Assembly (NCBI GenBank): GCA_964609115.1
Contig: CAZSRN010000001.1
Location: forward strand, 1-43,725
DNA from: an uncultured Veillonellaceae bacterium
Lineage (GTDB): Bacteria > Bacillota > Negativicutes > UBA1444
DNA length: 43,725 bases
Direction: 5' to 3'
Of the stretch, positions 9,964 to 43,725 are shown in pieces (the first letter of the stretch is position 1; each line of letters starts with the position of its first letter). Under the pieces are notes generated by a model. The model saw only the letters and a program-made list of their open reading frames with translations. It made no database searches and was not told where the DNA came from. The translations under genes and the position numbers were made by a program.

Positions 9964-11259
9964 TTATTCAGGCAAAAACAAACCTATCATAACCCGATTT
10001 ACCCATTTTATGCTCACGGATAGAGGTGTCAATAAACCTTTATAATACATCCACTCCAACGAAAAGATAAAAATGTAACCTATCAACAAATCCTGTACCC
10101 AACCCCGCCGCATGCGCGTCATTCCGAGAAGCCGTTCCCGGGACTGTTCCCGAATAGCACTCATTAATTCGATCATCTGCGCAATAGTTGCCGCAGTAAT
10201 GCGATTGGCGGCGCTGGAGGTTTCCCTCCCCGCATGGGTGCGCCCCGCCTGCTGCATTTTCTTTACGAGTTCTGTTAACGGGCGCAAGTATTGATGATCA
10301 CGTTCTTCCAACGAAATCAAAGTTGCCAAATCTTCCTTTGATTTATTCCATTTCAAGTATAACGGCAGCATAGTAATTCGCAAGAAAAAATAGGAGAGCA
10401 AAATAACACACAAATTATAAGCCTGCGTTAATATCCAGATATGCAGAGCGGTCGCATCTTGCGGCATAAGTTGAAAGGCGCCGCTCAAAACCGGCAAGGT
10501 AACATGTACCAGCACAAATGCATAGGCCGCCAGCAGAATCCAGGAAAAGACCACCGCGATACGATTTATCGAGTTCGAATGCATCTCACCGTATGCGCCG
10601 GTTAACGATAGTCCAAATCCGGTCTGTAGTTCCGCTGACCGACGGAATGTATACAAAACCACAGTGTTTTTTTGAATCTGAACTCCAATTACGCTGACAT
10701 TTCCAACCAACGGCGAACGTTTCTCCGGCCATTCAACATATAACCGAATAGTACGCTTGACGCGCAATACAAACCGAAGGGATTCATGCCGCCATGAACC
10801 CTTCCATCGCAAAGTTGCATATAATAATTGAATCATTGCAAATTCCATTAACCGCTGAAAATAACCATTGTTGCACTTTCGAACCAACAGTCGGCAAATT
10901 TGAAAATCAATAGAAGATACTCGTTGGTCATGCCACAGGTCAACAATAAGAAAATGCACGGCTACTTTCCCTAATAAAGGAACCTGTAGGCACACTTCCA
11001 CCAGGCTATCACCCGAAGCCTGCAAAGACTCGAACCAGGATTGGTGACACCCCAGCCAATTGTTCTTCTTGAGAATTTCACTAATTTCCGCATCGGAAAA
11101 TTCATATTCCCCGTGCCGGATACGCTCCAGAATCTTGCGCGCACGGGATGCAGCAACGGTATGGGGCATCGGCGACGTCACCTGGCGTTGTACCGACAAA
11201 GTATCCACTGCTCGAACAATTTTATCCAGCGCCCGGCCCCATTTTTTGATCAAATTCAT
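9964..11259 (-). CDS. Hypothetical membrane protein, 431 aa
   Basis: A soluble N-terminal region of about 230 aa, then hydrophobic segments (VVFSWILLAAYAFVLVHVTLPVL, ILTQAYNLCVILLSYFFL and LLIGYIFIFSL). GGGGG RBS before the ATG. No family recognised. Confidence 0.6.
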   Translation of the reverse strand: MNLIKKWGRALDKIVRAVDTLSVQRQVTSPMPHTVAASRARKILERIRHGEYEFSDAEISEILKKNNWLGCHQSWFESLQASGDSLVEVCLQVPLLGKVAVHFLIVDLWHDQRVSSIDFQICRLLVRKCNNGYFQRLMEFAMIQLLYATLRWKGSWRHESLRFVLRVKRTIRLYVEWPEKRSPLVGNVSVIGVQIQKNTVVLYTFRRSAELQTGFGLSLTGAYGEMHSNSINRIAVVFSWILLAAYAFVLVHVTLPVLSGAFQLMPQDATALHIWILTQAYNLCVILLSYFFLRITMLPLYLKWNKSKEDLATLISLEERDHQYLRPLTELVKKMQQAGRTHAGRETSSAANRITAATIAQMIELMSAIREQSRERLLGMTRMRRGWVQDLLIGYIFIFSLEWMYYKGLLTPLSVSIKWVNRVMIGLFLPE

Positions 11260-11352: not shown

Positions 11353-11841
11353 TCAAAATTCGCACTGTGCGAGTTGATCCTGAGCCGGCACCTGAATCTT
11401 TCTCAGCGTGTTAAGCCGAACCGTACGCTGCCCATTTGAAGGTTGTTTCCCTGAAGTTGCATACGCCAATGCCCCAGGCCCATTAAAAACAATGTCCGGA
11501 ACACCTTCATCCGAAAGTTTCATGACAATCAAATGTTGTGGGACCTGTTCACTGCGCAATACAACCGTTTCGCCTTGAGCGGGCTTGATTTGGACCAGGA
11601 TGGACTTATCCCGGGTCCGGGCATTATGAATTTTGCTGGAAGCGGGCAGCAGTTCAAGGTCAAAGCAGTGTGCAGCCAAAACTTCACAGAAGCTTTCAAT
11701 TTGGTGTCCATCGGGAGTAAAGCTTCTTTTGGGAAAAAGTTTGTCCAATTCAGATGTTACAGAAAAAAATTGACAAATCAACTGGCTGACTTTTGCGCTG
11801 GACAATGTTGGCTCAACTCCTTTAACAGGTACGATAAACAC
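11353..11841 (-). CDS. Hypothetical protein, up to 162 aa; start uncertain
   Basis: The ORF opens with a GTG at 11841. An in-frame TTG at 11805 lies behind an AAAGGAG RBS and is an alternative start. No family recognised with confidence. Confidence 0.55.
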   Translation of the reverse strand: MFIVPVKGVEPTLSSAKVSQLICQFFSVTSELDKLFPKRSFTPDGHQIESFCEVLAAHCFDLELLPASSKIHNARTRDKSILVQIKPAQGETVVLRSEQVPQHLIVMKLSDEGVPDIVFNGPGALAYATSGKQPSNGQRTVRLNTLRKIQVPAQDQLAQCEF

Positions 11842-11956: not shown

Positions 11957-12667
11957 TTACGCCTGCCAGAATTGTTGCGATGGGAGCTCCATAACAGTCA
12001 GGGGACCACCCCATGCGGCGCCGGTATCCAAAAAAATTTTATGTTCCCGTATCAGCGGCTTTGATATGTCCGTCACATCAGGAATTAATTCATACCGGGC
12101 CAGATACTGTATGGGAGTATGACCCGTCACCACGTCTTGCGGTCCCCGATATCCCTGTATATAAGGTTCACGTAACCATATAAGTTCTTGGGGAGACTGT
12201 TGTTCAAGCGAAATTCCAGGTCTTATTCCCGCATGAACAAATAAAAATCCCCATTCTTCATGCCACCGGGGCAATGATTGAAAAAAAGCCACATGTTCAT
12301 CCAGCAAATCAGATTGGTTTCGATAACTGGCAAGAGTGACCTCTCCGCCATTCGCATACCACTGTTCAATTTCTTCCTGCGACAAATGCATATTTTTTCG
12401 ATCTTTTAATGCCTGTCGCATCATATCTTCATGATTTCCATACAAAGCCACCGCACCCGATTCTACAAGGTGCATTACCATGGATACGGTCCGGTTGGAG
12501 TCTGGACCCCTGTCCACATAGTCGCCCAATAAAACCAGGCGATCCTGCTTCGGCTTATATCCCGCCAAGCTCAATACCCGCTTCATTTTTTCCAACTGCC
12601 CATGTATATCACCCATAACCAACAATCGTTGGTTTGGTCTACCGGCTTGTTCCATCTTTTCGGACAT
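11957..12667 (-). CDS. PPP-family metallophosphoesterase (Ser/Thr phosphatase, PrpE/ApaH-like)
   Basis: Carries the GDIHG, GDYVDRG and GNHE signature motifs in the canonical order. Confidence 0.85.
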   Translation of the reverse strand: MSEKMEQAGRPNQRLLVMGDIHGQLEKMKRVLSLAGYKPKQDRLVLLGDYVDRGPDSNRTVSMVMHLVESGAVALYGNHEDMMRQALKDRKNMHLSQEEIEQWYANGGEVTLASYRNQSDLLDEHVAFFQSLPRWHEEWGFLFVHAGIRPGISLEQQSPQELIWLREPYIQGYRGPQDVVTGHTPIQYLARYELIPDVTDISKPLIREHKIFLDTGAAWGGPLTVMELPSQQFWQA

Positions 12668-12730: not shown

Positions 12731-12772
12731 AAAAAAAGAAAACCTTCAACCCTAATCGGGCTGAAGGTTTTC
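12731..12772 (-). terminator. Intrinsic terminator after flp copy 1
   Basis: The minus strand reads AACCUUCAG-cccgauuaggg-UUGAAGGUU followed by UUCUUUUUUUG. Confidence 0.75.
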
Positions 12773-12788: not shown

Positions 12789-12950
12789 TTACAGCGCCGC
12801 AGATACGGCGTTAAACTGGGCCAGAACTTGCGGTCCGAGGGCTATGAGACCCGCCATGCCGACTACGGCTACCAGAGCAAGAATCAAACCATACTCGACC
12901 ATCCCTTGACCTTTTTTGTTTTGGAGAACAAAAGTTAACATCGTGAACAT
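12789..12950 (-). CDS. flp: Flp-family type IVb prepilin, copy 1 (53 aa)
   Basis: Own translation: MFTMLTFVLQNKKGQGMVEYGLILALVAVVGMAGLIALGPQVLAQFNAVSAAL. It has the Flp motif G/xxxxEY (GQG-MVEYG), a hydrophobic stretch and a GGAGG RBS. It is too short for the supplied ORF track. Confidence 0.85.
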   Translation of the reverse strand: MFTMLTFVLQNKKGQGMVEYGLILALVAVVGMAGLIALGPQVLAQFNAVSAAL

Positions 12951-13004
12951 TGTGTAAATCCTCCTCTATTTTTTTATTTGATATGCTGTTTGCTTTCTGA
13001 GTTT

Positions 13005-13013
13005 ATTGTAACA
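13005..13013 (-). promoter_or_regulatory. Extended -10 promoter element (TGT TACAAT) for flp copy 1
   Basis: Minus-strand TGTTACAAT about 55 nt upstream of the ATG. Conserved in position with the flp2 and flp3 elements. Confidence 0.5.
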
Positions 13014-13041
13014 AGCTTTATAAAGAGTTCCATCATACGCA

Positions 13042-13070
13042 AGTCTCAATTACCATGGGAACCGGGTCCC
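13042..13070 (-). promoter_or_regulatory. Composite motif site B: GGGACCCGGTTCCC, 9 nt, GAGACT
   Basis: Lies upstream of the flp1 promoter. Read on the minus strand. Confidence 0.4.
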
Positions 13071-13174
13071 ACACTACACGCAAGACCAAAGCTCCATCAC
13101 TCTGGTGCCTTTTCGCTCTGTTATTATCGTTCCAACCTGCACGCGCCGACTGGTTTCAATCCATTATTCATAAT

Positions 13175-13210
13175 AAAAATCCCCCTGGCTTTTTAAGCCA
13201 GGGGGATTTT
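13175..13210 (-). terminator. Intrinsic terminator after flp copy 2
   Basis: The minus strand reads AAAUCCCCCUGGC-uuaaaaa-GCCAGGGGGAUUU followed by UUAUUAU. Confidence 0.7.
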
Positions 13211-13228
13211 GCAGGTTTCTTTTGCTGT

Positions 13229-13390
13229 TTACAGCGCGCCGGTCACTGTATTAAACTGCGCCAAAACCTGCGGCCCGAGAAGCACGAGACCGGCCATGCC
13301 GACTACGGCTACCAGAGCAAGAATCAAACCGTACTCGACCATGCCTTGGCCTTTCTTGTTTTGGAGAACCGAAGTAATCATTGCGAACAT
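13229..13390 (-). CDS. flp: Flp-family type IVb prepilin, copy 2 (53 aa)
   Basis: Own translation: MFAMITSVLQNKKGQGMVEYGLILALVAVVGMAGLVLLGPQVLAQFNTVTGAL. RBS GAGGGAGGG. Confidence 0.85.
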   Translation of the reverse strand: MFAMITSVLQNKKGQGMVEYGLILALVAVVGMAGLVLLGPQVLAQFNTVTGAL

Positions 13391-13448
13391 GATATGAACC
13401 CTCCCTCAATTTTTTGTATTTGGTTTACGTTGCTTGCTTTCTGACTTT

Positions 13449-13457
13449 ATTGTAGCA
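13449..13457 (-). promoter_or_regulatory. Extended -10 promoter element (TGC TACAAT) for flp copy 2
   Basis: Minus-strand TGCTACAAT. The -35 is weak (ATGGAA). Confidence 0.5.
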
Positions 13458-13485
13458 AGCTTCACAGAGGGTTCCATCATACGCA

Positions 13486-13514
13486 AGTCTCAATTACCAT
13501 GGGAACAGGGTCCT
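13486..13514 (-). promoter_or_regulatory. Composite motif site C: AGGACCCTGTTCCC, 9 nt, GAGACT
   Basis: Lies upstream of the flp2 promoter and overlaps the last codons and stop codon of the ICMT-like gene. Confidence 0.4.
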
Positions 13515-14176
13515 ATACTCCCGCGTGACCGAATGCCTATCAACCCGGTTCGTTCATGATAATACGCATACTCGGGAAATGTTTGCAGCAACAATTTTTC
13601 TTCCCGCCGCAGACGCAACATCAAAAATGCGATTTGCGATATGGAAGCAATCAGCATCAGCCAGCTTGGAAACATCAAGACGTCGGCAACTGCCCAAACC
13701 ATGTAACAAACATACAGCGGATGACGCGAATATTTGTATGGCCCGTTCGCAACCACCGCATGCGCCTCCGGTACAACCGTCAAACAATCTCCAAGACAGA
13801 AAAGCGACCATATCACGAATGGATAGGGCAGAACCGAAAGAATAACTCCCAGCCTGCGAAGCTCTGCCATAAATCCTTCACCCACATGAGGCGCCGAAAC
13901 GAACATAACAATTACGCTAAATCCAAAGGTTGTACCTAATCCGATAATCATTGAAGAAATGCGGGCATCTATTTTCTTTGGTTGCTGTAACAAACTGCGG
14001 GTCAAAAAATAAATATCCAAAGCGCTTACAGCAATAATTGGAATTCCCCACAATATATGGTGCAGCGACTGTGAAAGGCGCATCAATGTAAGAAAAATAA
14101 TTACAACCATAAATAAAGTTACCGAACCGCTGGCCAAAAACCGCAAGTATTGTTGCCGGATTTCATGTGAGTTCAT
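13490..14176 (-). CDS. Integral-membrane methyltransferase of the isoprenylcysteine carboxyl methyltransferase (ICMT)/PEMT family
   Basis: Multi-pass membrane protein whose C-terminal signature is NGPYKYSRHPLYVCYMVWAVADVLMF...LRREEKLL. Start set at the ATG at 14176, behind an AAAGGAGG RBS. Confidence 0.75.
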   Translation of the reverse strand: MNSHEIRQQYLRFLASGSVTLFMVVIIFLTLMRLSQSLHHILWGIPIIAVSALDIYFLTRSLLQQPKKIDARISSMIIGLGTTFGFSVIVMFVSAPHVGEGFMAELRRLGVILSVLPYPFVIWSLFCLGDCLTVVPEAHAVVANGPYKYSRHPLYVCYMVWAVADVLMFPSWLMLIASISQIAFLMLRLRREEKLLLQTFPEYAYYHERTGLIGIRSRGSIGPCSHGN

Positions 14177-14203
14177 TTTCCAGCCTCCTTTCTCCAACAC
14201 TTT

Positions 14204-14239
14204 ATAAAAAGACCCCCGACCTTTTGCAGACCGGGGGTA
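14204..14239 (-). terminator. Terminator-like hairpin after flp copy 3, about 28 nt upstream of the ICMT-like start
   Basis: The minus strand reads ACCCCCGGUC-ugcaaaa-GGUCGGGGGU followed by CUUUUUAU. Confidence 0.6.
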
Positions 14240-14258
14240 TCCACTGGTTAGTTGTTGT

Positions 14259-14420
14259 TTACAGCGCGCCGGTCACTGTATTGAACTGCGCCAGAACCTG
14301 CGGCCCGAGAAGCACGAGACCGGCCATGCCGACTACGGCTACCAGAGCAAGAATCAAACCGTACTCGACCATGCCTTGGCCTTTCTTGTTTTGGAGAACC
14401 GAAGTAATCATTGCGAACAT
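14259..14420 (-). CDS. flp: Flp-family type IVb prepilin, copy 3 (53 aa, peptide identical to copy 2)
   Basis: The own translation is identical to copy 2, with two synonymous differences. Confidence 0.85.
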   Translation of the reverse strand: MFAMITSVLQNKKGQGMVEYGLILALVAVVGMAGLVLLGPQVLAQFNTVTGAL

Positions 14421-14522
14421 GATATGAACCCTCCCTCAATTTTTTGTATTTGGTTTACGTTGCTTGCTTTCTGACTTTATTGTAGCAAGCTCCGCAGAGG
14501 GGGCCATCATACGCAAGTCTCA
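14259..14522 (-). repeat. Direct repeat unit 2 (flp3 CDS, 5' UTR and promoter)
   Basis: See unit 1. Identity ends right after the GAGACT box. Confidence 0.9.
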
Positions 14523-14544
14523 TTTGTTTTAGGTATAGCGTCCT
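14516..14544 (-). promoter_or_regulatory. Composite motif site E (degenerate): AGGACGCTATACCT, 9 nt, GAGACT
   Basis: Lies upstream of the flp3 promoter. The left half-site and the GAGACT box are kept; the right half-site is degenerate. Confidence 0.3.
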
Positions 14545-14579
14545 ATTTTTAGTTCATATCAAAATGTATCAATCAAAAG

Positions 14580-15719
14580 TCAGCTGCCTGAAGGTACCGA
14601 AAGCACGACCTTGGTGCCCCGTCGGGGGGCGGATTTGATTGATAACTTTCCTTCCAGCAATTGTATTCGTTCCTGCATTCCCGTCACTCCATAATGCCCT
14701 GCCGGCAGCTCCTCCGACTCCGCATCAAACCCTTTTCCGTCATCTTCTACAACAACCGTCACTCCGGACGGCGCGAATTCGATTCGCACCTTTATGGAAG
14801 ATGCCTGTGCATGTTTTATAACATTATTCAACGCCTCTTGAACAATCCGAAACATCCCAATTTCAATATGAGGTTCCATTCGTCGCTCTTTGCCGATAAC
14901 CGCAACCTCAGTAAAAAGACCGTATTGCTCCCGAAAAACGTCCAATATCCCACGGACAGTCGGTACCAAGCCCAGATCGTCCAGCGCCATAGGCCGCAAA
15001 TCAAAAATAATCTTGCGAATTTCCGCCAAGGTACTGCGAATATGCTCACGCAATGCTTTCAATTCAGTTTTGGCCCGCTCTGCGTCCGTCTCAATCAAAC
15101 GTTCACAGACTTCTGCGCGGAAAACAATGTTGGCAATCGCCTGCGCCGGGCCATCGTGAATATCGCGGGCAACTCGTCGTCGCTCCTCTTCCTGACTACG
15201 GATAATCTGCGCCCCAAGCGCATGCGCATTCTGCAAATTTTCGATTTGGGCAAAGGCTGCGTTCATCTGATTCCCCAGATAATCCAATACCACACCCACT
15301 TGTGAAACCAACTGCTCCGCTTTGGAAACCGTTCCGCTCAGCGTGCGCAGCCGTCCTTCCAGATCATCCCTCTGTCTGCGCAAATTCTGTTCCTGCTCCC
15401 TGGCTACTGCGACATCAATCTGAATCTTGCGGGCATCGTCATAAGCTTCCCTGATTTCTTCCTCAGTACGGTTTTTAAAATCCCGGCTGACTTCCATCAG
15501 ATGAATGCGCGCTTTACGTTCGTTTCGTTCCAATTCATCCACTTTATAAATAATCGCGGCGGTTTCATCCTTAACGCGATCAACATCGCGCTTCACATTG
15601 TCCAGTTCCTCCCGCGCCATTTCATAAACGTCATAAATCTGCCCACGCCCGTCGTAAATACTGGCAATTGTCTTTTTTATAATTTTATCGAGGGTCTTAA
15701 CATTCACATCCTGTATCAT
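14580..15719 (-). CDS. degS: Cytoplasmic sensor histidine kinase, DegS-like (coiled-coil N-terminus, HisKA_3, HATPase_c)
   Basis: Close to B. subtilis DegS by eye: EEERRRVARDIHDGPAQ (H-box), IIFDLRPMALDDLGLVPT, and the N and G boxes (QEALNNVIKHA, DDGKGF, GVTGMQERI). No TM segment. Its ATG overlaps the tadB stop as ATGA. Confidence 0.8.
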   Translation of the reverse strand: MIQDVNVKTLDKIIKKTIASIYDGRGQIYDVYEMAREELDNVKRDVDRVKDETAAIIYKVDELERNERKARIHLMEVSRDFKNRTEEEIREAYDDARKIQIDVAVAREQEQNLRRQRDDLEGRLRTLSGTVSKAEQLVSQVGVVLDYLGNQMNAAFAQIENLQNAHALGAQIIRSQEEERRRVARDIHDGPAQAIANIVFRAEVCERLIETDAERAKTELKALREHIRSTLAEIRKIIFDLRPMALDDLGLVPTVRGILDVFREQYGLFTEVAVIGKERRMEPHIEIGMFRIVQEALNNVIKHAQASSIKVRIEFAPSGVTVVVEDDGKGFDAESEELPAGHYGVTGMQERIQLLEGKLSIKSAPRRGTKVVLSVPSGS

Positions 15720-16690
15720 ACTTCAATATCCACGATACGGCGAATGACCAGAATCCCTATTATCTGTCCCACCAGCGCAACTCCCAACATTATTTTTCCG
15801 ACAGGATGCACAAACAGCACCCGAATATAATCCGGATTCAAGACATAAATGACCACTCCCAAAGCTAATGGCAGCAGACTGACGATGATGCCGGAAATTC
15901 GGCCCTGTGCGGTCAGTGTTCGAATTTCACCCCGAATACGCACCCGTTCCCTGATAGTCTTGGCAATATTGTCGAGCACTTCCGAAAGATTCCCTCCCAC
16001 CTGACGCTGAATCAGCACAGCCGTCAGCACCAGGTCAAGATCGTCCGAATCAATACGCTTCGCCAGATTTCCCAGTGAAGTTTCTATCGTAATCCCTAAA
16101 TTCATTTCTTTGACGGTCCGGGCAAATTCAGTGGAAATTGGCGGACGCATCTCCTGCGCAACCATATCCGCCGCCTGCATGAAGCTATACCCTGTCCGCA
16201 GCGAATTGGCAATCAGAATTAGCGCATCGCCCAATTGTCCATTGAAAGCCTTCATCCGTTTGGCAGTCCTGATGTTCACCAATAAAAACGGTATTGAAAA
16301 ACCAACGATAGCGCCGACGATTCCCAATAGCACGGAGCCGCCGCCTATCAGCAGCAGCAGAATTGCCAGTAAAAGAGCCGATCCGCCGCACAGCGCAAGA
16401 AACTCGCCGCTCCGGATTGGCAGACCGGCTCTGAGCATGCGATGCTCCAACGAAAGGGTCCATCGGGGAGATTCCAGATAGCGCCCAATATTGCGCAGCA
16501 ATCCGCGCACTCCGGTGGCCTCGCCTCCCTGATAAGGGAAAGACGACGGTTCGGAAGTCAGATCAGCCCCCTGAACAACCTGATCCAATCGTCTGCCTAC
16601 AACACGTTTCTCGGCCGTTGCCAGCTGATAGACCAGCATAATGATTGTGCTTAGTGTTAAAAATACGCCGATGGATATGAGGAAAATCAT
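15716..16690 (-). CDS. tadB: Tad/type II secretion platform protein (T2SS-F domain, TadB-like)
   Basis: FNGQLGDALILIANSLRTGYSFMQAADMVAQEMRPPISTEF...QRQVGGNLSEVLDNIAKTIRER...LTAQGRISG matches the TadB/TadC family. Start set at the ATG at 16690, behind an AGGAGAG RBS. Confidence 0.85.
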   Translation of the reverse strand: MIFLISIGVFLTLSTIIMLVYQLATAEKRVVGRRLDQVVQGADLTSEPSSFPYQGGEATGVRGLLRNIGRYLESPRWTLSLEHRMLRAGLPIRSGEFLALCGGSALLLAILLLLIGGGSVLLGIVGAIVGFSIPFLLVNIRTAKRMKAFNGQLGDALILIANSLRTGYSFMQAADMVAQEMRPPISTEFARTVKEMNLGITIETSLGNLAKRIDSDDLDLVLTAVLIQRQVGGNLSEVLDNIAKTIRERVRIRGEIRTLTAQGRISGIIVSLLPLALGVVIYVLNPDYIRVLFVHPVGKIMLGVALVGQIIGILVIRRIVDIEV

Positions 16691-16703
16691 AGCACCATCT
16701 CTC

Positions 16704-17912
16704 CTATCGGCCAAAAAGCTTGAAGCGTAAAGAGCGCTTGCCTGCAGTGTTCTCCGCATCCGGTTCCGGCGGAGCCAAAATGGCAGCCAAGGCCAAAATC
16801 CGTTGCGTTACCGGGCATTCCGGATTTGTGATGACAAACGGAACCCCTTTGTTGATTGAACTTACAACCGTCTTGGCGTCCGTAGGAATCAATGCCGCAA
16901 ATGTTTTTTTCAACGTCGATTCCACTTCCCGCGAATCAATGCCGCCTTCTGGAGTTGCCCGGTTCAACACCAACATGATTTTTTTGTCTTCATACCCAAG
17001 TGATTGCATGATTTCCAACGCAAGTTTGGTGTTTTTTACCGTTGGCAAATCCAGTGCTGCGACAAGCAGGATAAAATCTGATGCGTCCAGCGCCGCAATC
17101 GTTGTTTCACTAAAGGAAGAAGCTGTGTCCACAATAATATAATCATAGGCGCTCCGCAACTGTTTCAATACGGATCCCATGAGAGTTCCCGTTACACTTT
17201 CCGCCTGTTCCGGTCGTAGAGGCGCGGCCAATACCTGCAGCTGTTCGCTATAGGGGGTCATGTAGGATGATAAAATTTTATCTTCCAGTTGCCCTTTTTC
17301 GGCGCCAACATCCGCAATGGTGCTGCGTGGCAAAACATTTAAAACCAGCGCGGCATCACCAAATTGGATGTCTGCGTCCACAAGTGCAACCTTGGTCGCC
17401 GGACGAAATGATAATGCAGCCGCAAGATTAACGGCAATAGTCGTCTTCCCGACCCCGCCTTTGCCTGAAAAAACACTGATCACCCGACCGGGAACTTTGT
17501 CGCCGGATTTCTGCGTAAGAACATCCCGGATCTTACGATCGCGATGATAGGCATCCTTCACTGCGTTGATCAGTTCATCGCCGGTAAACGGTTTGGTCAG
17601 ATAGTTTTTCGCACCGGCCATCATGGCGCGTCGCAAATATTCCTGCTCGCCTTGCACACTCATAATGATAATGGACGTTTCGGGTATCTCCAGACTTAAC
17701 CGCTCAGTAGCGGCGATTCCATCCATCCCCGGCATATTGATATCCATTAAAATGATGTCCGGGCGCAGTTTCTTAGCCTGAGCCAGCGCTTCTTCCCCGC
17801 TGCAGGCCTGCCCTACAGCCTCGATTTCCGGCTGAAACTCCATTAGTTTTTCTATATTTTCCCGGGTCGTTGCTACGTCATCAACGATTAGGACTTTGAT
17901 TTTTTCGCTCAT
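16704..17912 (-). CDS. cpaE: Response-regulator receiver domain fused to a CpaE/TadZ-like ParA/MinD ATPase
   Basis: The REC domain has DD, an acceptor Asp in ILMDINMPGMDG and a Lys in LTKPF. It is followed by the deviant Walker A SGKGGVGKTT. The start overlaps the secretin stop by 32 nt. Confidence 0.85.
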   Translation of the reverse strand: MSEKIKVLIVDDVATTRENIEKLMEFQPEIEAVGQACSGEEALAQAKKLRPDIILMDINMPGMDGIAATERLSLEIPETSIIIMSVQGEQEYLRRAMMAGAKNYLTKPFTGDELINAVKDAYHRDRKIRDVLTQKSGDKVPGRVISVFSGKGGVGKTTIAVNLAAALSFRPATKVALVDADIQFGDAALVLNVLPRSTIADVGAEKGQLEDKILSSYMTPYSEQLQVLAAPLRPEQAESVTGTLMGSVLKQLRSAYDYIIVDTASSFSETTIAALDASDFILLVAALDLPTVKNTKLALEIMQSLGYEDKKIMLVLNRATPEGGIDSREVESTLKKTFAALIPTDAKTVVSSINKGVPFVITNPECPVTQRILALAAILAPPEPDAENTAGKRSLRFKLFGR

Positions 17913-19152
17913 CCGTTTTCACCCCCGCCGGGTTCTGATTCATGTGGTCTTTTAACTCCTGTGACATACTCGGCACTAACGCCTGTGGATCGACGATCAT
18001 CGGAGTCACGAGAATGATCAGTTCCGTCTCCCCTTTTGTGAAACTTGTGCTGCGAAACAACTGGCCAATTACCGGGAGATCTCCCAGCAAGGGAAGTTTT
18101 GTCACATCCCGGGTAATATCATTGGAAATCAATCCACCGATCGCCATAGTCTGACCGGACGACAGCGCAATGGAAGTTTCCGCCTTGCGCATTCGGATTG
18201 GCGGAATTTTTATGTTGGTTCCCAGTTCAATCTTATTGACCGAATTCCATTCCATGGCACTCACTTCAGCCTTGACTTTGCTGGTTATAATCCCGTCAAG
18301 GCTTGCTTCCGGCGTAATCTCCAGCTTGATGCCATAATCTTTCCATTCAATACTGATCTGCCCATTCTGATTACTGACAGGCACGGGAATTTGCCCTCCC
18401 ACCAGCATGCTTGCCTTATCGCCGCTCAGCGTCACCATGTTCGGCTGTGAAAGCAACTTGGCATACCCATTTTGTATCATCAAGTTGATTTGGGCATTTA
18501 TCGGAGCGTAATTACCAAAGTTACCAGCCATCGAGGTCGATCCAGTATTGGATTGGCTTTGGCCGACATAAAATATTCCGGGGGATGTTGTGGCAGAATT
18601 ACTGTAATATTTCAATCCCAGGTCCTGTGTTTTCATTCGGTTAATTTCCACAATTTTTGCTTCGATTTTAATTTGAATCGGCTTGGCAATCTCCAGCAAA
18701 TTCACTACTTTGTCGCCATACGCGCCTGCAATTTTCTCCGCTCGTAATCGTTGGTACTGATCATTTACAGTCCCTTCCAAAATCACTGTTTTATTAACTT
18801 TCACAACACGAATATCCGGGTACCCGAGAATGCGTTTGATTTCGTTGGCGATTGCCGGATCGTTGGCCGCTACTTCCACCTGATAAGATTGCTTCCCCAT
18901 GTTCGACCACACAATCAAGGTAGTCGTGCCGGTTTGCTTGCCCACAAGAATCAGTTCCGAGCTGGAAACGACAACAACATCCGCTACGTCAGGATTGGCA
19001 ATCGCTGCTCGTTGCAAGCCGTACATCGTTATCGTCCTGGATTGGCCCGCGCCCACCGTCATCTTGGTTGGCGCTTCCGCCGCCACAACACCCACAGGCG
19101 ATAGAACGATGAAAAAACATAGCAGGATTCCAGACAACAGTAATTTTCTCAT
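17881..19152 (-). CDS. cpaC: Tad-type outer-membrane secretin (CpaC/RcpA family)
   Basis: Signal peptide MRKLLLSGILLCFFIVLSPVGVVAA, a pilus-N domain, a BON-like segment, and a secretin C-domain with LPLLGDLPVIGQLFR. Start set at the ATG at 19152. Confidence 0.88.
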   Translation of the reverse strand: MRKLLLSGILLCFFIVLSPVGVVAAEAPTKMTVGAGQSRTITMYGLQRAAIANPDVADVVVVSSSELILVGKQTGTTTLIVWSNMGKQSYQVEVAANDPAIANEIKRILGYPDIRVVKVNKTVILEGTVNDQYQRLRAEKIAGAYGDKVVNLLEIAKPIQIKIEAKIVEINRMKTQDLGLKYYSNSATTSPGIFYVGQSQSNTGSTSMAGNFGNYAPINAQINLMIQNGYAKLLSQPNMVTLSGDKASMLVGGQIPVPVSNQNGQISIEWKDYGIKLEITPEASLDGIITSKVKAEVSAMEWNSVNKIELGTNIKIPPIRMRKAETSIALSSGQTMAIGGLISNDITRDVTKLPLLGDLPVIGQLFRSTSFTKGETELIILVTPMIVDPQALVPSMSQELKDHMNQNPAGVKTDERKNQSPNR

Positions 19153-19168
19153 GTTCCCATCACCCCTT

Positions 19169-20041
19169 TTACTCAATTTTCGTCCCTCGAATCACCATAA
19201 CACCAGGTACTCCCTTGGATGCGTCTTGAAAAACTCCCGCTGCGGGCGCCGGGACTGCAGGTGAAGCCGGTTGTTCTTTTCCTGTTTGTACAGGTGATTT
19301 TTGGATTCCAACAATGTCGGTTGGTGTAACCGGCTGTACCGCTGCCACTCCTGTTTCCGGCAGAAATGGGCGCAACGTCAACCTTAATTTCCCCTTTTCC
19401 TCCGCCAAGGTCACTTTTGTCGCTTCCTCAGGCGAGACTGCCAGTGTCACGGTTGATAGTTTAACCACCCCGGCATCTTTGGCTGCATCTTTTTTCCCAT
19501 CCCGTTCCTGAGGCACTTCGCTTTCACGATTCACGGCCAACACCGGTACATTTTGCAACAAAATCTGGCTGACATTCCCGCCGGCCACCTGTTGATCAAA
19601 GGTCACAATAGCGTCAACGGAATCCCCTGCCTTTAGAAGGCCGGATACTCCCGTTACATCAGAAACCGCAATCGTTAATGCCCGCTTACCGGCAGGAATT
19701 ACTCCTGTAAACCCCGCTTGCTTGCCTGCCGTAAGCAGCCGGCGTTCCAACACCTGTTCTCCCCCCACGATGGCTTCCCGTGTCATTATCCCCAAAACCT
19801 TTGATAAATCCCGTACCGCGCCGCTTTGTATATAGTCGGCCGGCATCTGCGATTCTTGAACCATGTCGGAAGTGATTTTCGTCTTCGGGGGAATATCAAC
19901 CTTGGCCGTAATAACAGTTGCCAACTCTGAAGGTGGCGGCTGTTGAGCGCTCTCCCGCAAAAAATTAAAAACAAGGACTGCTGTAATCAGGCTTAATGCC
20001 AATGCGATTCCCAACAGTCCCTTGCTTGACAACTTTGCCAC
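19169..20041 (-). CDS. cpaB: Flp pilus assembly protein CpaB/RcpC (SAF domain)
   Basis: One N-terminal TM segment, then a SAF-like ...ITSDMV...P.... region and the RcpC-like GFTGVIPAGKRALTIAV...GLLKAGDSVD. Start set at the GTG at 20041, 8 nt after an AAGGAGG RBS. Confidence 0.85.
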   Translation of the reverse strand: MAKLSSKGLLGIALALSLITAVLVFNFLRESAQQPPPSELATVITAKVDIPPKTKITSDMVQESQMPADYIQSGAVRDLSKVLGIMTREAIVGGEQVLERRLLTAGKQAGFTGVIPAGKRALTIAVSDVTGVSGLLKAGDSVDAIVTFDQQVAGGNVSQILLQNVPVLAVNRESEVPQERDGKKDAAKDAGVVKLSTVTLAVSPEEATKVTLAEEKGKLRLTLRPFLPETGVAAVQPVTPTDIVGIQKSPVQTGKEQPASPAVPAPAAGVFQDASKGVPGVMVIRGTKIE

Positions 20042-20076
20042 CGGGTCTCCCTCCTTCACGCCACATTCGTGGTTTC

Positions 20077-20105
20077 ATTGTACAGGAGCCTCGACTAAAC
20101 CTCAA
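20077..20105 (-). promoter_or_regulatory. Candidate sigma-A promoter of the cpaB operon (-35 TTGAGG, 17 nt, extended -10 TGT TACAAT)
   Basis: Read on the minus strand, about 35 nt upstream of the cpaB start. Confidence 0.5.
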
Positions 20106-20134
20106 TAGAACAGTCATTCAAGCGATGCAACTTC

Positions 20135-20163
20135 AGTCTCATTTTTTATAGGACCCGTGTCCC
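20135..20163 (-). promoter_or_regulatory. Composite motif site D: GGGACACGGGTCCT, 9 nt, GAGACT
   Basis: Lies upstream of the cpaB operon promoter, in the corA-cpaB gap. Confidence 0.4.
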
Positions 20164-20178
20164 TTTTTTAGTTACACG

Positions 20179-21315
20179 TCACAACCACTTTTTAGTGCGA
20201 AAATATCGCAGCATGCCCAATGTAACCAGTCCCATAACGGTCCAAACGGCAAAATAACCATACTTCCACTTTAGTTCCGGCATATATTCAAAATTCATGC
20301 CATATACGCCGGCAATAAATGTTAACGGAATGAACAGTGTCGAAATGATCGTTAACACTTTCATTACTTCATTCAATCGGTAACTGATGCTCGACAGGTA
20401 AATGTCCAGCATGCCGGAAATCAAGTCTCTATAAGTTTCTACAGTATCGATGACCTGAATAATATGATCGTAAGCGTCCCTCAGATAGGGGCCCGTCTCA
20501 GCGGAACAAAAGCGTGAGCTACAGCGTTCAAAGGTCCCGATAATCTCCCGAACCGGCCAAACTGCTTTATGCAAGTACATCATCTGCCGTTTGAACGCAT
20601 GAATCTGCCGCAACAACGGGGGTCCCGGCTGCCTAACCAACTCTTCATCAAGAAACTCTATCGCGTCTCCCAAGTCCTCCAGCACCACAAAGAACTGATC
20701 CACCATTACATCCAGCAATGCATAAGCCAGGTAGTCGGCTCCCTGAGTCCTCAGCCGTCCTTTCCCGTTCAAAATACGCTCTCTTACAGGAGTAAATAAT
20801 GACCCGTTACTTTCCGCAAATGATATAACCCAATTTTCGCCAAACAGCAGGCTCACCTGCTCGAATGATATATCCAATTTGTGATTTGTTTTCACAGAAG
20901 ATTTATGGTGAGGATTTGCAACCGCCGCCTCATGCTGCGCAAACGGAATTCGCGCCACCAAAAACAAGTACTGATCATACTCCTCAAACTTTGGTCGCTG
21001 CGTGGTATTCAGAATATCTTCCAACACCAAGGGGTGAATCGAAAATTGCCGTCCAATCTCCTCTATCGCATTCACATCATGAATTCCGTTAATTTCGATC
21101 CAAGATATAGTACGTGATGGATGAAACGGCAATAATTTTTCCCATTCATCGAATTCCCGGGTGTTGGCGCCAGTCGCGTCAAAGTCTGTCTGGCGGACCC
21201 GGATTTTTTCCGAATAAACCGCTCCGACATGTGTCAGCGTTCCCGGCGGAAACCCCTTTTTCCCTGCATAAGCAGTTGAGATGCGTTTCAGAGGATCACC
21301 CCGTAATTTTATCAT
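20179..21315 (-). CDS. corA: CorA-family magnesium/cobalt transporter
   Basis: The C-terminus carries YGMNFEYMPE (GMN motif) between two TM helices. Confidence 0.9.
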   Translation of the reverse strand: MIKLRGDPLKRISTAYAGKKGFPPGTLTHVGAVYSEKIRVRQTDFDATGANTREFDEWEKLLPFHPSRTISWIEINGIHDVNAIEEIGRQFSIHPLVLEDILNTTQRPKFEEYDQYLFLVARIPFAQHEAAVANPHHKSSVKTNHKLDISFEQVSLLFGENWVISFAESNGSLFTPVRERILNGKGRLRTQGADYLAYALLDVMVDQFFVVLEDLGDAIEFLDEELVRQPGPPLLRQIHAFKRQMMYLHKAVWPVREIIGTFERCSSRFCSAETGPYLRDAYDHIIQVIDTVETYRDLISGMLDIYLSSISYRLNEVMKVLTIISTLFIPLTFIAGVYGMNFEYMPELKWKYGYFAVWTVMGLVTLGMLRYFRTKKWL

Positions 21316-39217: not shown

Positions 39218-39880
39218 TTATTCAAACCACTCTTTTTCTTTCATTCGCAGCTCCGCTTGTTTTCCAAAAATATAGCGAATTACTTTTTTCTTCGTTGTCT
39301 CATCCATTTCATTAAACTTTATTCCCGCAAAATACTTGTCCAAGGGTGGAAGTGGGGGATTTAGACGAACAACCTTTCCCTGCATTTCCAACACAAAATC
39401 GTCACCGATAGCCACACTGATTCCAACTTTTGTTCCAACCGGCAACGGTTTGACAAGGACAACCTGCACACCGCCGGCACTGATATCGCGCGTTAATGTC
39501 CGGATCACTTTTGTTTCGGGTTCATCATTCAATATTTCCAAACTGATCGGCAAACTAATTTCCAGCCGAACATCCTCCCGCAACTGAGCTTTGCGAAAGC
39601 TGGAAGGTTTTGACATTTCCCATAAGGGAAGCGGCTCAGAACGATACCGCAACAGAGTTGCCGAAAACAAATATGGAACCTTGTCGGAAACGACTCTCGC
39701 CGAAATGATCCTTCCGGGCCGCGGCGGCAAATAAAAGCCTTTGCGGAATGGAGGAGTAATAAATATCGACTCCTCTCCAATATCCTCAATCCGGCTGAAA
39801 AAAACTTCCCTCTCCATGCTTTCCCAGTTTTCTTCAATCACATCAATTTTTTGTGTTACCCGCAGTATTTCTGTCATCAA
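39218..39880 (-). CDS. PilZ-domain c-di-GMP receptor, YcgR-like (flagellar brake type)
   Basis: N-terminal YcgR-N-like beta domain, and a PilZ domain with RxxxR (LREDVR) and D-x-S-x-x-G (DISAGG). Confidence 0.8.
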   Translation of the reverse strand: MMTEILRVTQKIDVIEENWESMEREVFFSRIEDIGEESIFITPPFRKGFYLPPRPGRIISARVVSDKVPYLFSATLLRYRSEPLPLWEMSKPSSFRKAQLREDVRLEISLPISLEILNDEPETKVIRTLTRDISAGGVQVVLVKPLPVGTKVGISVAIGDDFVLEMQGKVVRLNPPLPPLDKYFAGIKFNEMDETTKKKVIRYIFGKQAELRMKEKEWFE

Positions 39881-40732: not shown

Positions 40733-41077
40733 CTATCGTTGCCAAAATTGAGGTTTTGGCCCTACTAAATTCACAAAGTGATTATAAATGCGAGGAGAAT
40801 TGTCTTTGCGCAAAATACAGACTTTGATGCTGTGGGGAGCTGTGCCGTGAATACAGGAATGCGCAAGCGTTCCGGAAACAATCGCATCACACCAGACATA
40901 ACCGTATATCAGCGCCTCCGGCGCAGAGGCCTTGATTCCGCCGCCCTCAACATCCCATAAGGGATTGGAAACTTCGCCTACGTAAACTTGAGCAATTTCC
41001 CAGCTGTTCCATTGCCGACGCACGGAAACCAGCTCTGTATCCAAAACTGTTTTCAGGCTTTTGGAATTTGCCGGCAT
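40733..41077 (-). CDS. Hypothetical protein (114 aa)
   Basis: AAAGGGGAG RBS 7 nt before the ATG. No family recognised. Confidence 0.5.
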   Translation of the reverse strand: MPANSKSLKTVLDTELVSVRRQWNSWEIAQVYVGEVSNPLWDVEGGGIKASAPEALIYGYVWCDAIVSGTLAHSCIHGTAPHSIKVCILRKDNSPRIYNHFVNLVGPKPQFWQR

Positions 41078-43188: not shown

Positions 43189-43725
43189 TTATTCTTTGAA
43201 TTCGTCATGCGCCAGCAGTTTTTTTAGTCGTCCGAACGCATTCAATTGTGAAAGCGCCAATAATAATATAGCAACAACAAACAGGATGCTTAGAGGCCGT
43301 GTAAAGAATGGAGCCGGATCGCCATTCGACAAAATCAATGCGCGCCGAAGATTGTTATCGGCCATCGGTCCAAGAATGATGCCCAGCAAAAAGGGGGCGG
43401 CCGGATAAGACATTTCCCGCAATAACAGCCCTAGCAAGCCAAATACAAACATCAAATAAATATCAAAAATATTATTGTCAATGACAAATGATCCGACAGC
43501 GCAGAGCACATAAACAATCGGCATCAATATTGTACTCTTGACGGCCAATATTCGAACCGTTGCTTTCGACAGGATCAGCCCCAGCACTACCATCGTAATC
43601 GCGCTGATTGCCATATAAATGCTGATGGTGTAGACAAATCCGGGGGACTCGCTCATGAGCAACGGCCCGGGGCGAAGTCCATGAAGCCATAGCGCTGCAA
43701 GAAGGACAGCAGCCGGAGCGCTTCC
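43189..43725 (-). CDS. tctA: Tripartite tricarboxylate transporter permease TctA, 3' part (gene continues past window end)
   Basis: The frame stays open to position 43725 (..GSAPAAVLLAALWLHGLRPGPLLMSESPG..). The C-terminus carries ...PAAPFLLGIILGPMADNNLRRAL, as in the TctA family. Confidence 0.8.
   Translation of the reverse strand, partial: GSAPAAVLLAALWLHGLRPGPLLMSESPGFVYTISIYMAISAITMVVLGLILSKATVRILAVKSTILMPIVYVLCAVGSFVIDNNIFDIYLMFVFGLLGLLLREMSYPAAPFLLGIILGPMADNNLRRALILSNGDPAPFFTRPLSILFVVAILLLALSQLNAFGRLKKLLAHDEFKE

Follow-up and report, generated by a model that had tools for sequence, protein, structure and literature searches.

A Tad pilus cluster that ends after its pilin genes in an uncultured Veillonellaceae bacterium, probably one half of a split system

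The stretch of DNA analyzed here, hereafter the window (43,725 nucleotides of an uncultured Veillonellaceae bacterium, contig CAZSRN010000001.1), carries on its minus strand, at 12789-20059, a gene cluster for a tight adherence (Tad, type IVc) pilus that ends after the pilin genes. The best known systems of this kind are the flp-tadV-rcpCAB-tadZABCDEFG locus of Aggregatibacter and the cpaA-F genes of Caulobacter, which share with the window the Flp, RcpC/CpaB, RcpA/CpaC, TadZ/CpaE and TadB families. Unlike in both of these, in the window family the pilin genes follow the platform genes and the motor gene follows the pilins, a histidine kinase is embedded in the cluster, the receiver domain of TadZ is canonical and, as argued below, the genes are probably distributed over two loci. 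Tad systems are reported to be almost exclusively encoded at a single locus, multi-locus ones being real but very rare according to MacSyFinder (PMC6668835). The window clade does not show this organization, which is typical but not obligatory.

Shared or distant prepilin peptidases have been documented for type IV filament systems (PMC6668835; bioRxiv 10.64898/2026.07.08.737194). The Tad system of Bdellovibrio bacteriovorus resembles the one proposed here in having its genes spread over several loci, with tadC apart from tadB and no dedicated TadV, its prepilin being processed by PilD of the type IVa pilus (T4aP) (bioRxiv 10.64898/2026.07.08.737194). It differs in belonging to another phylum, in the gene sets found at each locus and in possessing a TadZ-TadA fusion without a receiver domain. 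The Kil system of Myxococcus is also split.

With a probability that we put at about 75%, a chromosomal rearrangement split a Tad system of which the window cluster represents the promoter-proximal half, with the motor supplied in trans. This reading starts from what is observed directly, namely the gene content of the cluster, its conservation, the selection acting on it, and the existence and genomic context of modules carrying the other half in relatives, from which the presence of such a back half in the window's own genome would be predicted. Genes in the window were identified by Pfam and NCBIfam profile searches, with the protein-family scan covering open reading frames (ORFs) of at least 150 amino acids (aa) across the whole 43.7 kb. 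The cluster and its immediate flanks comprise:

20179..21315, minus strand: corA, the upstream flank, outside the machine (PF01544, 1.5e-68)
19169..20059, minus strand: rcpC/cpaB, periplasmic alignment-complex protein (PF16976, 2.7e-29; SAF; TIGR03177, 167 bits, cutoff 71)
17881..19152 (ATG at 19152; alternative TTG at 19176), minus strand: rcpA/cpaC-type outer-membrane secretin (T2SS-T3SS_pil_N; BON; Secretin PF00263, 3e-43)
16704..17912, minus strand: tadZ/cpaE, a response-regulator receiver (REC) domain fused to a ParA/MinD ATPase (Response_reg, 8.4e-31; AAA_31, 5e-20; ParA/CbiA)
15716..16690, minus strand: tadB, inner-membrane platform protein with one T2SSF domain (PF00482, 1.8e-18)
14580..15719, minus strand: degS-like cytoplasmic histidine kinase of the HisKA_3 type (PF05384, 2.1e-50; HisKA_3, 2.4e-17; HATPase_c, 2.7e-14)
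14259..14420, minus strand: flp1, prepilin of 53 aa (Flp_Fap, 30.1 bits; Class_III signal, KGQG/MVEYGLILALVAVV)
13490..14176, minus strand: polytopic membrane methyltransferase of the ICMT/PEMT family, between flp1 and flp2 (PF04140, 3.4e-11; PF04191, 5e-10)
13229..13390, minus strand: flp2, prepilin of 53 aa, identical in protein to flp1
12789..12950, minus strand: flp3, prepilin of 53 aa, 85% identical to flp1 (Flp_Fap, 31.5 bits)
11957..12667, minus strand: calcineurin-like metallophosphatase, ApaH/PrpE-like, a marker of the truncated cluster's breakpoint side (PF00149, 8.9e-18)

An earlier sequence-only reading of this DNA had named the genes cpaB, secretin, REC-cpaE/tadZ, tadB, DegS-like kinase, three flp and a methyltransferase, with corA upstream and a phosphatase downstream, and the profile searches confirm these identifications, including those of the two flanks (PF01544 and PF00149). 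Its description of the junctions was also right: they consist of a 32-nucleotide (nt) overlap, a 13-nt gap and an ATGA overlap that places the degS start on the tadB stop, degS being translationally coupled to tadB, while the cpaB-cpaC junction is a 16-nt gap or an 8-nt overlap. The components typical of diderm Tad systems are represented by the RcpA/CpaC secretin, with its pilus N-domain and BON domain, and by RcpC/CpaB. TadB, whose homologs carry the name "tight adherence protein B", likely starts at M24 of the longest ORF, as in available gene calls, yielding a product of 324 aa. Each of the three Flp proteins combines a G/XXXXEY processing site, with the motif G/MVEYGLILALVAV in all of them, and a hydrophobic core, and their Flp_Fap scores (30-31.5 bits) fall just below the cutoff of 32.2. 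Also under cutoff are the match of the methyltransferase to NF040696 (62 bits) and the weak NCBIfam matches of the metallophosphatase to ApaH, PrpE and Ser-Thr phosphatase families.

The remaining parts of the machine are not encoded in the window. Neither T2SSE (TadA/CpaF) nor Peptidase_A24 (TadV/CpaA) was detected by Pfam among the ORFs scanned, a second T2SSF protein is absent from the 43.7 kb, and tadV, tadD and rcpB were not seen at the cluster. A tblastn search of the window with the TadE, TadG, TadA, TadC and DUF192 proteins of relatives revealed no remnant of any of these genes, its sole match being the expected paralogous one between TadC and the window tadB, and none of the pseudopilins TadE, TadF and TadG is present in the window. 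The local lack of tadA, tadC and tadV asserted by the sequence-only reading thus stands, on Pfam evidence for tadA and tadV and on tblastn evidence for tadA and tadC. Of the platform pair, TadB is encoded in the window and TadC is not; in relatives, tadC adjoins tadA in the displaced modules described below.

Contigs of 46-52 kb from sewage metagenomes carry a gene for a protein identical to the window TadZ (contigs of relatives are designated here by L numbers), TadB homologs with 73-81% identity occur on hundreds of contigs, chiefly from global sewage metagenomes, and the named TadB relatives at 53-57% are Negativicutes (Lucifera butyrica, and metagenome-assembled genomes (MAGs) of Veillonellaceae and Negativicutes). 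Among the best 120 matches listed for TadA and for TadC, complete clusters came from Sporomusa, Thermosinus, Sporolituus and Dendrosporobacter. In these Sporomusa-type Negativicutes the layout is rcpC-secretin-REC/tadZ-tadB-degS-flp-tadE-tadG-tadA-tadC-DUF192, with corA in front (examples are L005, L009/L010, L105, L184, L134, L150 and L174); tadB always lies straight after tadZ, and the ATPase gene comes after the pilin and pseudopilin genes. The remark in the sequence-only reading that cpaE and tadB leave no space for a motor gene between them is therefore true of the window but describes no deviation, because the complete clusters carry tadA-tadC after degS-flp-tadE-tadG. The same applies to the peptidase, which is absent locally, as had been stated, but not as a peculiarity of this locus: no prepilin peptidase appears in the gene tables of the relatives' complete clusters or in the Pfam-scanned ORFs of displaced modules, and since the complete clusters lack it too, its absence from the window is normal for the family.

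What really sets the window cluster apart is that it ends after flp. It is colinear with the first six genes of the complete clusters, at 47-59% aa identity, and then stops. Both types have these genes in the same order and orientation, corA upstream, the same promoter element in front of flp and the same Flp motif, their proteins are 47-63% identical, and neither contains a peptidase gene; unlike the complete clusters, the window lacks a contiguous tadE-tadG-tadA-tadC-DUF192 segment and carries a metallophosphatase gene, an ICMT-family gene and two extra flp genes. Two further arrangements were encountered in other contigs. Lucifera butyrica L003 (UPPP01000065.1) has tadB-flp-tadE-tadG-tadG-tadA-tadC preceded by unrelated genes and without rcpC, secretin, tadZ or degS, and L144 (MTLD01000146.1) has rcpC-secretin-tadZ-tadB followed by tadE-tadG-tadA, with degS not detectable.

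Comparison of gene order across relatives showed the truncated layout corA-rcpC-...-degS-flp-(ICMT)-metallophosphatase in every examined relative whose TadB is 61-100% identical to that of the window (L001/L002; L233, 78%; L015-L024, 74%; L232, 69%; L007, 63%; L108, 61%), and in none of these truncated relatives was tadA, tadC or tadE found within 10 kb of the cluster. The corA gene lies directly upstream of rcpC in L015-L024, L108 and L232 as well as in the complete L105. On the other side, all truncated relatives carry a metallophosphatase gene after flp or flp-ICMT, and in most of them DUF6998 comes next, whereas neither is found in the complete clusters; these two genes are markers of the breakpoint, whether or not they contribute to the system. 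The window secretin is 80% identical to those of L018 and L232 and 55-57% identical to those of complete-cluster relatives. In L015, L016, L017, L019, L021 and L023, the secretin, metallophosphatase or tilS gene lacks an entry in the gene tables, which proved to be due to 100-N gaps in the MUNK22 sewage scaffolds, which constitute a trap for pseudogene calls.

The genes of the front half are kept under strong purifying selection, and their truncation is old and clade-wide. In comparisons of the window with L018 or L007, synonymous sites are saturated (proportion of synonymous differences, pS, about 0.75), whereas the corresponding nonsynonymous proportion (pN) is 0.13-0.21 for rcpC, secretin, tadZ, tadB, degS and ICMT and 0.06 for flp, in the same range as the comparison genes corA (0.21), panC (0.16) and tilS (0.31). 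For tadB against L018 the values are 0.157 (pN) and 0.70 (pS), and RcpC is still 65% identical to its L018 counterpart at saturated synonymous sites.

The lists of the best 120 TadA and TadC matches contained no cluster sampled as heavily as the TadB of the window clade. A TadA clade does exist outside the complete clusters, and at no more than 80% identity to the complete types it was therefore missing from these lists. It was recovered by scanning metagenome contigs with a degenerate DNA pattern of a family-specific TadA motif, GKLN[IV]VVSGGTGSGKTT, which is present in 119 of the 120 family TadAs and in 0 of 80 TadAs of other phyla. The scan returned complete clusters and, apart from them, the TadA genes of L114, L179, L203, L216, L196, L165 and L224. 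These displaced TadAs share 83-100% identity with one another and 72-80% with each of the 120 complete-type TadAs, and the accompanying TadC is 51-61% identical to the complete types. A divergence of this order would be expected of the window clade, whose TadB, TadZ and DegS share 47-63% identity with those types. The displaced modules are laid out as (tadE-tadG)-tadA-tadC-DUF192, and in none of them is degS or flp found upstream. TadE, TadG and DUF192 are intact wherever the contig extends, TadE (PF07811) and TadG (PF13400) being present in L196, L165 and L224, and the pN/pS ratios of tadA and tadC (0.08-0.21) indicate purifying selection.

The neighbors of these modules allow the break to be located. 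In L196, an AsnC gene is followed by tadE-tadG-tadA-tadC-DUF192 and then by OKR_DC_1 (an Orn/Lys decarboxylase), tmk (thymidylate kinase) and DUF327, and in the complete L105 the same OKR_DC_1-tmk-DUF327 series lies downstream of DUF192, with five other genes between. As the front half has kept corA and the back half has kept OKR_DC_1-tmk-DUF327, the two represent the two sides of one break between flp and tadE. On its new side, the back half adjoins a T-box-regulated operon of an AsnC-family regulator and a class I/II aminotransferase, which is transcribed divergently from the displaced tad module. The T-box leader (RF00230; E values 5e-13 and 1.5e-14, under the gathering score) lies upstream of this operon at the following positions:

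L114, 4875-5092: T-box leader
L224, 7-223: T-box leader
L108, 15686-15783: T-box leader, on a front-half contig

The aminotransferase and AsnC proteins encoded beside tadA in L114 and L179 are 80-83% identical to those encoded after flp-metallophosphatase in L108, whose operon has the same T-box leader as the back-half contigs. A front half, L232 (Ga0351907_1151), and a back half, L196 (Ga0351907_1025), come from one small JGI assembly, Ga0351907. Tetranucleotide correlations are 0.94 between L232 and L224, 0.92 between the window and L232, 0.89 between the window and L224, and 0.89-0.92 for L196 and L179 against L018 and L007, compared to 0.3-0.6 for the complete types against the high-G+C front and back sets; the G+C content is 46-56% for the back halves and 47-58% for the front halves. 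The front tree, ((window, L232, L018), L007, L108), is congruent with the back tree, ((L224, L196, L165/L216), (L114, L203, L179)). In addition, a 114-aa orphan protein with no Pfam match is encoded both in the window (40733-41077, minus strand) and in L224 (7335-7679), with 75% identity.

From these data we propose that an ancestral operon rcpC-secretin-tadZ-tadB-degS-flp-tadE-tadG-tadA-tadC-DUF192, with corA upstream, was broken in the flp-tadE intergenic region. The front half, still beside corA, would provide the Flp pilins and the secretin, along with the alignment ring (RcpC), the positioning ATPase (TadZ), the platform subunit TadB and the DegS-like kinase. The back half, (tadE-tadG)-tadA-tadC-DUF192, would have kept its old downstream neighbors, the Orn/Lys decarboxylase gene, tmk and DUF327, and would supply, in trans, TadA as the hexameric motor, TadC as the second subunit of the platform, and the minor pilins. 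Flp would be processed by a peptidase encoded elsewhere, in complete and split members of the family alike, and the flp genes would be driven from a conserved promoter element of their own, found in the window at three positions:

14479..14520, minus strand: promoter-like element AGACTTGCGTATGATGG-N17-TGCTACAAT of flp1
13449-13490, minus strand: the same element of flp2
13005-13046, minus strand: the same element of flp3

In its shorter form, AGACYTGCGKAYGATGG-N17-TGCTACAAT, the element upstream of flp is common to the window and several complete-type relatives. In an extended form it consists of ATAGGAC, about 20 nt, and TAAGACYTGCGKAYGATGG-N17-TGCTACAAT (14479-14560, 13449-13530 and 13005-13090), and looks like an extended -10 promoter preceded by two upstream half-sites for some activator. 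The full element including the -10 box is also present in L018, L007, L108, L105 and L003, and L005 has the upstream half-sites only. A terminator-like hairpin follows flp1 (14212-14238), and hairpins with T-runs follow flp2 (about 13176-13212) and flp3 (about 12731-12771); an Rfam search gave nothing credible inside the cluster. The 295-nt unit that contains the promoter element occurs three times, and the flp1 and flp2 units share 95% DNA identity. The 3' end of the ICMT gene overlaps the flp2 element, and a copy of this 3' end is found upstream of flp3 at about 13050-13095, which suggests a tandem duplication of an ICMT-flp unit. The ICMT gene follows flp in the window and in L015-L024 (the group at 74%) and is missing from L007, L108, L232 and L233; its product might be a modifier of Flp. 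L108 carries at 16192-16389 a second, divergent Flp-like ORF (…RHGQGVLEYVLVLTLVAVV…) with no Pfam match.

Several points weigh against a split system with the motor in trans. The recovered back halves all come from relatives, none from the window's own genome or species, and the evidence from composition and co-occurrence is circumstantial. The sole physical link between the halves is scaffold L108, in which a 100-N gap separates the metallophosphatase and aminotransferase genes and in which the second flp-like gene stands right after the T-box-AsnC-aminotransferase operon, where other contigs have tadE/tadA. L196 and L232 differ in G+C (54.9% vs 46.7%) and therefore represent different organisms of the same sample. 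The flp promoter element was not found upstream of the back-half modules, which thus provide no evidence of co-regulation, and a prepilin peptidase was seen in no locus examined.

One alternative would be that the lineage lost tadA and tadC, and that what remains serves another purpose or assembles Flp without TadA. We consider this unlikely. It would account for the lack of tadA, tadC and tadE both in the 43.7 kb and, in all relatives examined, within 10 kb of the cluster, for the strong purifying selection, which shows the half-cluster to be in use, for the clade-specific gains beside flp (ICMT, metallophosphatase and extra flp copies) and for the best-120 TadA and TadC lists without a cluster sampled as heavily as the TadB of this clade. 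It does not fit with the existence of a separate, intact and selected tadA-tadC clade that shows the expected divergence, composition, neighbors and tree shape; moreover, pilin polymerization without a hexameric ATPase is not known from any type IV filament system, Tad included, and TadB is only known to act together with TadA. Even the ancestral type IV filament system was able to energize its own assembly, as inferred by Denise et al. (PMC6668835), and this also weighs against a lineage without a motor. A narrower version, in which the window's own species differs from its relatives in having no tadA or tadC at all and retains a selected secretin-RcpC-TadZ-TadB-DegS-Flp module, appears equally improbable; if true, it would mean a Flp/secretin apparatus working without the canonical motor or with a foreign one, perhaps remodelled by the ICMT methyltransferase and the metallophosphatase that are specific to the clade.

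We also doubt that the motor and platform are borrowed from a different, complete type IV filament system, be it a second tad type or the PilB/PilC pair of a T4aP. Prepilin peptidases are exchangeable between systems (PMC6668835; for Bdellovibrio PilD, bioRxiv 10.64898/2026.07.08.737194), and more divergent TadA types do occur in some Negativicutes, such as that of the Veillonellaceae MAG L036 (60%, among the matches listed). However, no such second locus was observed for the window clade, the orthologous back half is present and conserved in relatives, and swapping of TadB, TadC or TadA between systems is not known. Finally, a decaying remnant left by deletion of the distal half of a complete operon would explain the local absence of the distal genes but is scarcely credible, given that every ORF is intact in every relative, that pN values of 0.06-0.21 at saturated pS, like those of housekeeping genes, contradict decay, that the flp promoter element and terminators are conserved, that the apparent gene losses are scaffold gaps, and that flp has been duplicated and not lost.

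The sequence-only reading had left two possibilities, a motor and peptidase obtained from elsewhere or a repurposed apparatus with a different energizing logic. The displaced tadA-tadC modules of relatives favor the first of these; for the second, the comparative data point to a chromosomal break instead, and nothing supports repurposing. With the motor half found displaced in relatives, the surprise of a cluster without a motor therefore largely dissolves.

The split system proposed here would also carry a regulatory pair within its front half. TadZ has a deviant Walker A motif, GKGGVGKTT, and combines a ParA/MinD domain with a receiver domain. TadZ is usually described with an atypical receiver domain (bioRxiv 10.64898/2026.07.08.737194), whereas the receiver in the window carries the residues DD (11-12), D56, S84 and K106 and aligns over its full length with CheY, VraR and NarL (E 1e-19 to 1e-22), its best matches in the PDB being VraR, NarL, DesR and CheY; from the phospho-acceptor residues and the end-to-end alignment we conclude that it is canonical, not atypical. 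The kinase resembles DegS of the Bacillus DegS-DegU pair in being cytoplasmic, in having a full DegS N-domain (159 of 159 profile positions of PF05384) together with HisKA_3 and HATPase_c, and in having a NarL-like receiver nearby. Unlike in Bacillus, that receiver has a ParA/MinD ATPase as its fusion partner instead of a LuxR-type DNA-binding domain, and no DegU-like gene (receiver plus LuxR-type helix-turn-helix) was detected among the window ORFs scanned or in the relatives' clusters, leaving the domain on TadZ as the sole receiver of the cluster. NarL-family receivers are the usual partners of HisKA_3 kinases, and degS occupies the same position in truncated and complete clusters. The DegS-like kinase thus probably phosphorylates the TadZ receiver, which would gate the assembly or positioning of the machine. 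Searching the literature for tad loci with a DegS kinase yielded nothing relevant, and this conserved kinase/receiver pair of Sporomusa-type tad operons is apparently undescribed.

Downstream of the flp genes, the metallophosphatase gene is followed by DUF6998, a 431-aa protein, tilS, hpt and ftsH. Two of these neighbors had been left unrecognized in the sequence-only reading, which allowed for a divergent ATPase or peptidase among them:

11353-11841, minus strand: DUF6998
9964-11259, minus strand: 431-aa protein, predicted to be helical and partly membrane-embedded, inserted between DUF6998 and tilS

Neither showed a match to T2SSE or Peptidase_A24. The 431-aa protein gave no Pfam, NCBIfam or PADLOC match and has no Walker A motif, and its AlphaFold single-sequence model is unusable (mean pLDDT 37). 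Among the relatives examined, it occurs only in the closest one, L233 (433 aa), and is therefore not a conserved part of the system. Elsewhere in the window, a YcgR-like protein with PilZNR and PilZ domains (39218-39880, minus strand) suggests that motility is under cyclic di-GMP control in this organism. At 43189-43662 (minus strand) lies an ORF whose match to TctA is confined to the C-terminal quarter of the profile (positions 331-423). It is bounded by an in-frame stop close to the window's end and may represent either a truncated gene or an effect of the assembly edge.

Across the window clade, these Negativicutes thus likely possess a long-kept two-locus Tad system in which the gene order is lineage-specific and a kinase/receiver pair is embedded. 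The breakpoint of this two-locus Tad system in diderm Firmicutes can be reconstructed, and locus-based detection would miss or mislabel systems of this kind. The DegS-like kinase beside a canonical TadZ receiver, in turn, suggests direct phospho-control of the ATPase that positions the pilus.

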